NCBI GenBank assembly: GCA_963720545.1
Contig: OY970399.1
Span: 1,664,001 to 1,728,000 of the forward strand
Direction: 5' to 3'
Length of the DNA: 64,000 nt
Origin: an uncultured Acidobacteriota bacterium
GTDB lineage: Bacteria; Acidobacteriota; Vicinamibacteria; Fen-336
Shown: piece by piece, positions 8,695-32,403 of the stretch
Position numbering within the stretch: position 1 is the first letter of the stretch
Layout: every line of letters begins with the position of its first letter
Notes under the pieces: generated by a model
The model's input: the letters and a program-made list of their open reading frames with translations, nothing else
The model's database searches: none
Told to the model about the DNA's origin: nothing
Translations under genes and position numbers: made by a program

Positions 8695-8735
8695 TGATTT
8701 TCGGGGGTTTCGTGCCGCGACCGGGCCCACGTGAA

Positions 8736-8830
8736 TCCCGGCTGTCCCGCGGCACACCCAGGAGCGCCTGACCGTTGCTCCCTTCCGGGCCTGGCGGGGT
8801 TGGGGCGTCCCACGTTGCGCGGGGCCGGGA
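8736..8830 (-). ncRNA. ffs: Signal recognition particle (4.5S) RNA
   Basis: Minus strand CCAGGCCCGGAAGGGAGCAAC helix-8 signature within a TCCCGG...CCGGGA hairpin, immediately upstream of dnaX. Confidence 0.93.
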
Positions 8831-9066
8831 TCCACGTGCGACCGGCCGCGAACTTCTAGGTTACCCCGAAGGCCTGCGCGGCGAGGACCGCCAGAAAAGA
8901 CTCCGACGAACGGCCCCCGCCCCTCCTCAGATACCGGGAACCGCTCGTCGCGAGACAGATTCGACCGGCTTGCGCCAGGCCGTCCATCTCATGCCGGGAA
9001 GATACGCCCGACGCCCGCGGCAAGTCTTCAGCGAGTTCTCAGGGAATCCTCAAGAGTATCGGGCGC

Positions 9067-12688: not shown

Positions 12689-12778
12689 TGGCGGAGAGAG
12701 AGGGATTCGAACCCTCGGTAGAGTTACCCCTACACGTGATTTCCAGTCACGCCGATTCAGCCGCTCTCGCATCTCTCC
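12689..12778 (-). tRNA. tRNA-Ser (GGA)
   Basis: GGAGAGA acceptor, CGTGA-CT-GGA-AA-TCACG anticodon arm, long variable arm, GGTTCGAATCC, encoded CCA. Confidence 0.97.
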
Positions 12779-30538: not shown

Positions 30539-30628
30539 TGGCGGAGAGGGTGGGATTCGAACCCACGATACCCTTACGGGTATAGCAGTTTTCGAGACTG
30601 CCCGCTTCAACCACTTGCGTACCTCTCC
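30539..30628 (-). tRNA. tRNA-Ser (CGA)
   Basis: GCAGT-CT-CGA-AA-ACTGC anticodon arm, long variable arm, GGTTCGAATCC, encoded CCA. Confidence 0.97.
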
Positions 30629-30684: not shown

Positions 30685-31155
30685 TTAGCGGCGGCGGGCG
30701 AAGAAGGCGGTGACGAGGGCTCGGCATTCCTCTTCGGCGATACCGGAGCGCACCGCGAAACGGTGGTTGCCGGGAAGGCGTTCGGCGTCCATCACGGACT
30801 CGATCGCGCCGAACTTCGGCTCGACGGCGCCGTACACGACCTCGGCGACGCGGGCCTGCATCAGGGCGCCGACGCACATCAGGCACGGTTCGAGCGTGAC
30901 GTAGAGGGTCGCTCCCACGAGACGATAGTTGCGGATGCGCCGCGCGGCACTGCGCAGTGCGACGATCTCCGCGTGCGCCGTCGGGTCGCGCGCGCTGATC
31001 GGCCGGTTGAAGCCGGCTGCGAGGACCGCGCCGTCCAGGGCGAGCACCGCGCCGATCGGCACCTCCCCCGCCCGCTCCGCGCGTCGTGCTTCGCGGAGCG
31101 CAAGCGCCATGCCGCGTTCGTCATCGAGCGGTGCGAGCGGCGATTTCAATGCCAC
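30685..31155 (-). CDS. tadA: tRNA adenosine(34) deaminase
   Basis: GEVPIGA, DPTAHAE, TLEPCLMC; start uncertain (GTG 31155 or ATG 31110). Confidence 0.93.
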   Translation of the reverse strand: MALKSPLAPLDDERGMALALREARRAERAGEVPIGAVLALDGAVLAAGFNRPISARDPTAHAEIVALRSAARRIRNYRLVGATLYVTLEPCLMCVGALMQARVAEVVYGAVEPKFGAIESVMDAERLPGNHRFAVRSGIAEEECRALVTAFFARRR

Positions 31156-31270
31156 GTTGAGTTTTTGATAATGCGATGTTGCAGATTTGATGACACGCGA
31201 CCTCAAGTCCTGCCGCAACGAGTGGGCCTAACTGTATGCCATGTCTACGAATCGCGTTTTGGTTGTGTGC

Positions 31271-31286
31271 TGGCATGCGCCCTGCA
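31271..31286 (+). promoter_or_regulatory. Putative sigma54 promoter
   Basis: TGGCATGCGCCCTGCA, GG-N10-GC. Confidence 0.6.
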
Positions 31287-31296
31287 GTATCAAGCG

Positions 31297-31487
31297 GCAG
31301 ACGGATAGGGATCGTAAGCCCAAGGCGCACAGGCGCGAGAGCTTCGGTACCCATCGATCGAGGTCGGCGTGGTTTGGAGGGAGCTGCGCCGGCGTCGTCG
31401 AAACGCCACGGTCAAGCGATCGTGGCGGGGTTGAGCCGAAGAAGCAACTGGTCGCCGTAAGCCCGATCCCTTTATTTTTTCCCCTGC
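31297..31487 (+). ncRNA. Candidate structured ncRNA of unknown family
   Basis: AGGGATCG/CGATCCCT closing stem, nested helices, two internal hairpins, T-run at the 3' end. Confidence 0.55.
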
Positions 31488-31500
31488 TATCCTTCGGCGC

Positions 31501-32403
31501 ATGCACTTTTCGCGCACTTGCGCCGTCCTTGCCGCAGCGTTCCTCTGCTGGTCCTCTCCGGCGCAAGCCGCCGAGCGCAGTCGCGAATTCTGGCGCGACA
31601 TCATTAGTAAGGACTACGCAGTGCCTGCCGGCGAGACCGCCGCGGGGCTGCTGAACGAACTGCTCGATTCGCTCGGCTCGCCCGACCCCGAGGTGCGCGA
31701 CAAGTTCTGCTACGAGATCCCGGCCACGTGGATCTATCGCGACGGCAAGTTGTCGCCCGCCGAACTGGAAGCCTTGCGCCGGCGGCTGCAGGGAAACCTC
31801 GCCGAGAAGATTGGCAGCGCCGGCGACGACAGCGTCTTGCTGCGTTCCTTCTCAGCGCTCGACCTGTCGGTGATCGCTGCGTACGAGAACAAGTCGCCTT
31901 ATCTCGCCCCGGCCGCATTCGCCGACCTGCTGGACGCGGCGCTCCAATACCTCGCGAACGAGAAGGACCTGCGCGGCATCGACCCCGACAAGGGTTGGAT
32001 GCACGCCACCGCCCATACGGCCGACCTGCTGAAGTTCCTCGCTCGCTCGCAGAAGCTCACCGCGGCCGGCCAGGCACGCATCGTCGAGGGCATCGCCGCC
32101 AAGCTCGACACGGCGCCTGTGCCCTTCACCCACGGCGAGCACGAGCGGCTGGCGCGCGCGCTCCTGGCCCTTGTGCTGCGTGCCGATTTCGATCCGCAGC
32201 CGCTCTCTGGGTGGATCACGCGGACGCAGGCGGCGAACAAGGCGCTGTGGGCGGCGCCCAAACTCGACCTCGTCCGCTATGACGAGGTCGAGAACACCCG
32301 CCTCACCTTGCGCAGCCTCTACGTGCTGGTGACGCTGCAACCCGCCGGCAAGGTGAAGCCAGGCGTTGCCGAACTGCTGCGCAATGTCGTGAGCGACGAG
32401 TAG
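31501..32403 (+). CDS. Secreted DUF2785-like protein
   Basis: Signal peptide; LGSPDPEVRD, RSFSAL, EKDLRG, GWMHATAHTAD. Confidence 0.75.
   Translation: MHFSRTCAVLAAAFLCWSSPAQAAERSREFWRDIISKDYAVPAGETAAGLLNELLDSLGSPDPEVRDKFCYEIPATWIYRDGKLSPAELEALRRRLQGNLAEKIGSAGDDSVLLRSFSALDLSVIAAYENKSPYLAPAAFADLLDAALQYLANEKDLRGIDPDKGWMHATAHTADLLKFLARSQKLTAAGQARIVEGIAAKLDTAPVPFTHGEHERLARALLALVLRADFDPQPLSGWITRTQAANKALWAAPKLDLVRYDEVENTRLTLRSLYVLVTLQPAGKVKPGVAELLRNVVSDE

Follow-up and report, generated by a model that had tools for sequence, protein, structure and literature searches.

Introduction

Sigma54 activators that are devoted to one small RNA, such as those of Pxr, GlmY, CrcZ and Qrr, tend to top major lifestyle or envelope decisions. 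CrcZ/CrcY and CsrB/RsmY/RsmZ are abundant trans-acting sponges that stand behind two-component regulators, and the sponges of the Csr and Crc systems carry many sites. In Myxococcus and the Cystobacterineae, the accessible text on Pxr and on PxrK/PxrR (Nla19) (PMC5684412, PMC5568312, PMC10217877, PMC11928866) describes an RNA that is 108 nt long and folds into three separate stem-loops, the first of which has a C-rich loop region. Its gene lies directly downstream of that of an NtrC-like activator, the spacer holds a sigma54 promoter and an enhancer, and the RNA is found in one clade, has paralogues in some genomes and has a function tied to a hairpin loop. For GlmY and the GlrK/GlrR and RapZ proteins, the accessible part of PMC4152352 gives a sigma54 promoter, a dedicated activator with sites more than 100 bp upstream (TGTC-N10-GACA for GlrR) and a partner RNA, GlmZ, which frees a hidden ribosome site on glmS. 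Acido-1, Acido-Lenti-1 and atoC are presented in the corresponding part of PMC2864571 as orphan structured RNAs of Acidobacteria or deltaproteobacteria.

Here we describe an RNA locus in a stretch of 64,000 nucleotides (the window) from the genome of an uncultured acidobacterium, G000. The RNA recalls Pxr by its place directly downstream of an NtrC-like activator gene in the homologues (54/65, relocated in the source genome), by the sigma54 promoter and enhancer in that spacer, by its restriction to one clade and by paralogues in some genomes; a function tied to the hairpin loop is proposed here. Unlike Pxr, it measures 125-175 nt, is closed end to end with a junction and exposes a G-rich loop; no kinase gene was seen near the activator in seven neighbourhoods, and no Pxr model matches it. 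With GlmY it shares sigma54, a dedicated activator (here a candidate), sites more than 100 bp upstream, an envelope-related neighbourhood and a RapZ-family gene in the genome, but we found no match to GlmY or GlmZ sequences or models and no GlmZ-like partner or target, and the GlrR site is unlike the enhancer described below. The RNA therefore belongs to neither system, having no model match and another fold and loop. The three orphan RNAs are all in Rfam, and none of them matched at E values up to 10 or 5. We regard the locus as a new RNA under a known kind of regulation.

Results

A sigma54 promoter and an enhancer precede a long closed rod

An earlier note on this DNA, made from the letters alone, had proposed a sigma54-driven structured RNA divergent from tadA. 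The promoter-like box TGGCATGCGCCCTGCA on which it relied is indeed at 31271, and the transcription start predicted from it, about 31297, agrees with the one that had been proposed; in two runs, both from the same study, RNA-library contigs begin at 31299. The plus-strand fold of 31290-31490 reaches -101.3 kcal/mol (z -5.78, 0/200 shuffles equally good); for the minus strand of the same interval z is -2.49, with 3/200 shuffles equally good. The pairings that had been listed were all located: the outer stem AGGGATCG (31307) with CGATCCCT (31464), then GGCG 31324/CGCC 31453, CTTCGG 31342/CCGAAG 31436 and ACCC 31349/GGGT 31428, as were the apical hairpin with its GGAG-containing loop, the second hairpin and the T-run after the rod (Table 1). 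The repeat GTAAGCCC (GTAAGCC) does occur twice, at 31314 and 31457, but the large internal loop that it was said to flank is only a series of small loops; moreover the doubled form occurs in 1 of 104 distinct homologues, that is, it is private to the source genome and not conserved.

Table 1. Features of the locus and of related sequences (window positions unless a locus is named)
Feature	Position	Strand	Remarks
Upstream activator site (enhancer)	31154..31183	+	about 115 bp before the sigma54 box
Sigma54 -24/-12 promoter	31270..31286	+	GG 31272-31273, GC 31284-31285
ncRNA, about 175 nt	31299..31474	+	long irregular rod closed by a three-way junction
P1a closing stem, 5' strand	31307..31314	+	pairs with 31464-31471
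P2 arm with apical hairpin 31363-31393	31354..31401	+	loop GGAGG 31376-31380
P3 hairpin	31404..31427	+	preceded by unpaired AA
Closing stem, 3' strand, and U-tract	31464..31480	+	probable terminator; T-run 31471-31480
tadA	30685..31155	-	divergent; start 31155 or 31149 by inspection, uncertain; NF008113 174 bits (cut-off 150)
Extended -10 (TG-n-TATCCT)	31485..31493	+	7 nt before the ATG of the DUF2785 gene
DUF2785 gene	31501..32403	+	PF10978, E 1e-38
SRP RNA	8732-8831	-	
tRNA-Ser genes, two	12689-12778 and 30539-30628	-	
Small-protein copies	L363:1349-1555	+	
	L364:884-1090	-	
	L367:886-1089	-	
	L371-L377		

We folded every third of the 104 homologues. In each of these 35 the unpaired stretches reached 5-6 nt at most and the rod measured 125-174 nt; the loop GGAGG, closed by weak U-G, U-A and U-G pairs, was unpaired in 34 of the 35 folds. 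The U-tract (at least 5 T in 8 bases) is present in 101/104 homologues, and two RNA contigs end at 31474, a weak hint for a terminator. The statement of the earlier note that there is no credible ORF holds, since a hexamer gene model trained on the source genome called none of the three ORFs of more than 100 aa crossing the element, and the lengths of the homologues are spread over all three frames (39/24/39). Behind the loop we found no conserved small ORF; a start codon occurs there in 11/104 sequences, at scattered positions.

A strict YGGCA-N7-TGCW box stands at the same distance in 78/104 homologues, against 0/97 and 0/81 in control windows, and the source genome has an rpoN gene. The enhancer follows the consensus AYGTTGCG-N5-GATA-N6-YGTTG. 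Among the 102 homologues with enough flank, 62 have the strict motif and 85 score above 12 with a profile, which was built from the same homologues that it scores; the 17 with a low score include the relocated copy of G013. In the 4.09-Mb source genome this profile finds a single above-threshold site (score 38.5), and the pattern occurs in 35/59 genomes of the family (reversed control 0). An IHF-like site was seen in only 16/102 homologues, with no strict match at the source locus. The locus thus unites what marks a sigma54-dependent small RNA: a conserved -24/-12 box, an enhancer, a probable terminator and a non-coding transcript. By their conservation, the enhancer, the sigma54 box, the rod and the U-tract form one gene. 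The functional unit starts upstream of the span given by the earlier note, at the enhancer.

The divergent tadA also begins right at the enhancer (31140-31200). The tadA promoter must therefore overlap this site, and tadA is possibly coupled to the activator in the source genome.

The RNA is found in RNA libraries

Six RNA runs of two studies hold 7-8% of the words of 30700-32300. From four of these runs, covering both studies, we recovered contigs without differing letters that span 31299-31474 (X1, X2), 31308-31456 (X5) and 31308-31465 (X6); such contigs carry no strand, level, true ends or DNA control. Outside the RNA there was only a 36-nt piece in tadA, from a contig running on unlike the source genome, and these bare flanks argue against DNA carry-over. 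The RNA is probably abundant.

The rod could also be the precursor of a shorter, active RNA that is released by RNase III cleavage or by trimming, in the manner of the processing of Pxr-XL/L to Pxr-S described in the accessible text of PMC10217877. The long, mostly paired stem would suit such a fate, the genome has RNase III, and two contigs begin at 31308, in the closing stem. However, contigs of near full length were obtained in two runs and the middle stem is conserved neither in sequence nor in length, and we consider this fate quite improbable; it may combine with any of the mechanisms discussed below.

Homologues share a covarying structure and a constant loop

A BLAST search over 60 relatives returned five weak matches, of which three were true homologues sharing GGTTTGGAGGGAGC and two, L004 and L006, were rejected as coding chance matches. 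A 15-nt pattern gave 4 homologues among the 120 stretches listed from genome contigs. In metagenome contigs a pattern scan gave 108 stretches, from which 18 partial-length matches, duplicates and L175, a chance match, were dropped. This filtered set and seven seeds made 76 distinct sequences, and the genome searches raised the number to 104. The strict sigma54 box, which lies outside the search pattern, was present in 69 of 77 sequences examined.

A 36-pair structure was derived from a sequence-only alignment of 51 of the 76 homologues. Two-sided changes were observed at 24 of the 36 pairs, a count that kinship among the sequences inflates, with 95.8% paired (0/500 shuffles; slid controls 40-52%); in the genome set fitted to the model they were seen at 21/36. 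The closing stem P1a, with 9 pairs, is paired in 96.9% of cells and has two-sided changes at 6. P3 is the best-covarying helix (7/9 pairs; at one of them as many as 29 sequences differ on both sides), and it is reduced or lost in some genera. Alignment A3, in which row L297 is reversed, was left out of the counts. The covariance model gives the locus 102 bits, its own sequence being part of the model. This covariation, together with the lack of an Rfam match and the coverage in RNA libraries, bears out the proposal of a sigma54-driven, structured, trans-acting RNA, and we hold it nearly certain that the family is real.

The covariance model found the RNA in 26/36 genomes of the family and in none of the class and phylum samples outside it, where 19-47 candidates were scored per genome. 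Six genomes that the model missed have a shorter form of the RNA behind the activator gene, and two more homologues were recovered via the enhancer. A promoter-plus-loop pattern matched 39/52 genomes of one family and 0/348 others of the class; its matches in the phylum (3/398 genomes, against 2 in the control) were rejected, as they have no closing stem or U-tract. One pattern match in viral contigs is not a homologue. The named records that hold the RNA (L062, L084, L121, L131) are titled Vicinamibacteria or Acidobacteria. By these sequence searches, the RNA appears restricted to a single family of soil Vicinamibacteria.

Within the family, the sigma54 box, the closing stem, the U-tract and the apical hairpin are constant; P3, the middle of the rod and the total length vary. 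GGAGGGA is present in 34/34 genome-derived loci, 28 of which came from the model that contains the loop, and 8/8 loci to which only synteny or the enhancer had led keep it; changes in the flanking letters are rare. Second copies of the RNA lie away from the activator gene in G035 (L368/L299) and in G006 (L294).

Catalogued RNAs do not account for the locus

Rfam 15 was searched with the whole window at gathering thresholds, with the locus at E values up to 10 and with five homologous loci at up to 5. The window search gave only the SRP RNA and two tRNAs, the locus one 20-nt chance hit, and the homologous loci three sub-threshold hits; the absence of a match, on which the novelty claimed by the earlier note depended, is therefore confirmed for the RNA locus. 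We found no description of the RNA in the literature, although motif lists in the supplements of ncRNA screens could hold one, and nothing bearing on it in the accessible part of bioRxiv 10.1101/2025.09.11.675593. A repeat or MITE was rejected, the element being single copy in the genome by BLAST and by covariance model.

The gene neighbourhood and the RNA as a leader

The usual order is activator, RNA, gmd. Among homologues with enough flank, the activator is upstream in 54/65 and gmd downstream in 47/56; among genome matches each was found in 24/28. In G000 the activator-gmd spacer, about 80 nt, is empty and the RNA lies 1.5 Mb away beside tadA, the enhancer, promoter and RNA having moved together with the full enhancer kept. 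G013 represents a second relocation, with a short, empty activator-gmd spacer and the RNA elsewhere behind its promoter and a weakly scoring enhancer. On this sequence evidence both neighbours of the RNA in the window appear to be there by chance: tadA is upstream in 1/76 homologues, and none of 29 tadA loci retrieved from relatives gave a DNA match to the RNA; the DUF2785 gene is downstream in 1/76, the source genome only. The latter probably has its own promoter and is leaderless, judging from the extended -10 just before its ATG; 278/3380 predicted starts have TAnnnT at that spacing, whereas a control window gave 76.

The earlier note had also thought of a cis-regulatory leader of the DUF2785 gene, or of a 6S-like RNA. 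A leader or riboswitch acting on whatever gene follows, DUF2785 in the source genome and gmd in others, would agree with a next gene on the same strand as the RNA, and with gmd following so often; and the size and closed 5'-3' rod of the RNA do recall 6S RNA (RF00013). However, the class of the downstream gene changes, at times with the opposite strand, the U-tract is constitutive, and the downstream genes have separate promoters (for gmd, a sigma70-type promoter follows the U-tract in at least 11/34 cases). Besides, the RNA contigs stop short of DUF2785. Against a second 6S RNA, the rod has a three-way junction and no central bubble and does not match RF00013, a canonical 6S RNA is encoded at C1:458564-458741 (92.6 bits), and our model R1 does not match it. 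The leader and 6S readings are thus already largely refuted, and we give them almost no credence.

A candidate activator is found with the RNA

The gene at C1:202.7-204.1 kb encodes an NtrC-type protein with receiver, sigma54-AAA and Fis-type HTH domains (REC-AAA-HTH), which scores below the NtrC and NtrX cut-offs. Its orthologues, with 65-73% identity, occur only in the RNA-bearing family (27 genomes including G000); relatives in other families reach about 50-54%. No such RNA follows the genes of the twelve next-best paralogues, whose identity is about 50%. From this synteny and co-distribution it is highly probable that the activator controls the RNA via the enhancer. Its neighbours, a divergent lipoprotein-like gene, a CtpA protease gene and gmd, hint at an envelope signal. 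The lipoprotein-like gene (L324:12146-12658, minus strand) encodes about 165 aa without a Pfam match, is conserved and divergent from the activator in seven neighbourhoods, and is a candidate signal partner of the activator. In G004 (L323), a gene that we recognised by eye as RNase P RNA-like lies directly behind another NtrC-type regulator.

The same hairpin occurs in leaders of small-protein genes

An unannotated family of proteins of 67-70 aa, with an arginine-rich start and an acidic middle, is encoded in 6/59 genomes, belonging to three genera (g2, g3, g25), has 14 database relatives and gave no Pfam or Atlas match. All nine copies have the sigma54 box, 8/9 have the enhancer by profile, and 7/9 leaders hold the GGAGG hairpin some 50 nt ahead of the AUG. 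The protein was not found in G000; the RNA is therefore independent of it. One copy (L365) diverges after about 11 codons. In L378 (G025:C8:510200-511500), a fifth enhancer and sigma54 box of G025 precede, without the hairpin, a short ORF that by eye we take to resemble a 3D-domain cell-wall protein.

Discussion

We propose, tentatively and at slightly less than even chances, that the RNA is a trans-acting decoy which titrates an RNA-binding protein via its one loop, a reading close to the protein sponge that the earlier note had considered. Synteny and co-distribution suggest that the phosphorylated activator would bind the enhancer and turn the RNA on; a dedicated NtrC-type sigma54 activator would then act mainly through this stand-alone RNA, its sole predicted target in the source genome. 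The RNA probably accumulates as a stable piece, as the RNA-library contigs suggest. The rod may serve as a nuclease-resistant scaffold, the constant business end being the apical hairpin GGUUU-GGAGG-GAGC, which would bind and titrate its protein as GlmY does RapZ. A protein site fits best because the scaffold is nearly fully paired, with one constant stem-loop, and because this stem-loop is reused in mRNA leaders. In favour of a protein ligand, no unpaired run exceeds 6 nt, and length, P3 and middle stem vary freely whereas the letters of the loop and of its closing stem stay; the single site per molecule speaks against a decoy.

Which protein would be titrated was considered among the known cases. 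Like CrcZ/CrcY (CbrB) and CsrB/RsmY/RsmZ, the RNA would act in trans behind a two-component regulator and has GGA in a hairpin loop, but it has one conserved GGA hairpin and not repeats. CsrA as the partner, and with it a CsrA sponge, was rejected, since PF02599 was found in 0/59 family genomes, against 3/14 controls. Hfq was not found in G000 (genome 94.8% complete). A divergent Hfq-like gene, below the Pfam cut-off, is present in 3/5 relatives (G013, G009, G024; L326:1249-1692, L327). G000 has a RapZ-family gene; RapZ is widespread (7/14 controls), so its presence there says little. At G000:C1:254553-257198, rpoN is followed by an HPF-like gene and then by the RapZ-family gene.

GGAGG is also the Shine-Dalgarno core of the source genome (320, against 40 in the control) and matches the 16S tail, so that pairing with anti-Shine-Dalgarno tracts or with 16S rRNA remains a reading. 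In the former case the loop would base-pair with CU-rich tracts, freeing a hidden ribosome site or sponging a CU-loop small RNA, and GGAGG(GA) would extend to about 11 nt once the weak apical pairs open. The identity of the loop with the Shine-Dalgarno core, an apex closed only by U-G, U-A and U-G pairs and partly open in two relatives, and the anti-antisense precedent of GlmZ in the accessible text of PMC4152352 all speak for it. Over 3380 predicted starts, however, a crude test gave best duplexes with 5' regions of -24.4 kcal/mol, against -24.1 to -26.9 for five shuffled seeds; TCCCTCC, the loop complement, shows no enrichment ahead of starts (2, with 1 in the control), and none of its 103 sites in G000 is prominent. 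The lack of an Hfq hit in G000 also weighs against pairing, and the RNA differs from Hfq-dependent small RNAs in that it offers only a 5-nt loop as a single-stranded seed and no target rises above shuffles. We therefore regard pairing as possible but doubtful. TCCCTCC also occurs in the T-arm 3' strand of several tRNAs of G000, probably by coincidence.

In the latter case the loop, a Shine-Dalgarno mimic without a start codon, would dock on the 16S tail and park 30S subunits when the activator fires, and the hairpin in small-protein leaders would serve as a ribosome loading site. The 16S tail, ending in GATCACCTCCTTTCT, has a predicted duplex of -11.1 kcal/mol with the loop, a conserved start codon after the loop is absent and the hairpin is kept in most of the mRNA leaders. 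But only 5 Watson-Crick pairs form, the conserved G-A after GGAGG mismatches the 16S tail, and GGAGGGA is rare as a Shine-Dalgarno form in the source genome (5/3380). Pairing all five bases of a pentaloop is, moreover, sterically hard, and a literature search for precedents of such mimicry found none; this docking is rather unlikely. Unlikely as well, if a little less so, is a portable Shine-Dalgarno-mimic module, by which the RNA would capture 30S subunits or a protein that reads Shine-Dalgarno sequences and the leaders would let co-regulated mRNAs be translated or autoregulated.

As the host family lacks CsrA and Hfq was not found in G000, the invariant loop is likely to engage either an RNA-binding protein that has escaped recognition or a pairing target of an uncommon kind. 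If the module described above is real, the entire output of a sigma54 two-component pathway would be an RNA decoy directed at translation initiation. The locus brings one more RNA family to such dedicated sigma54 systems, from soil Acidobacteriota of a single uncultured family. Its enhancer, promoter, ends and structure and a candidate activator are defined, which allows the system to be rebuilt in a laboratory host.
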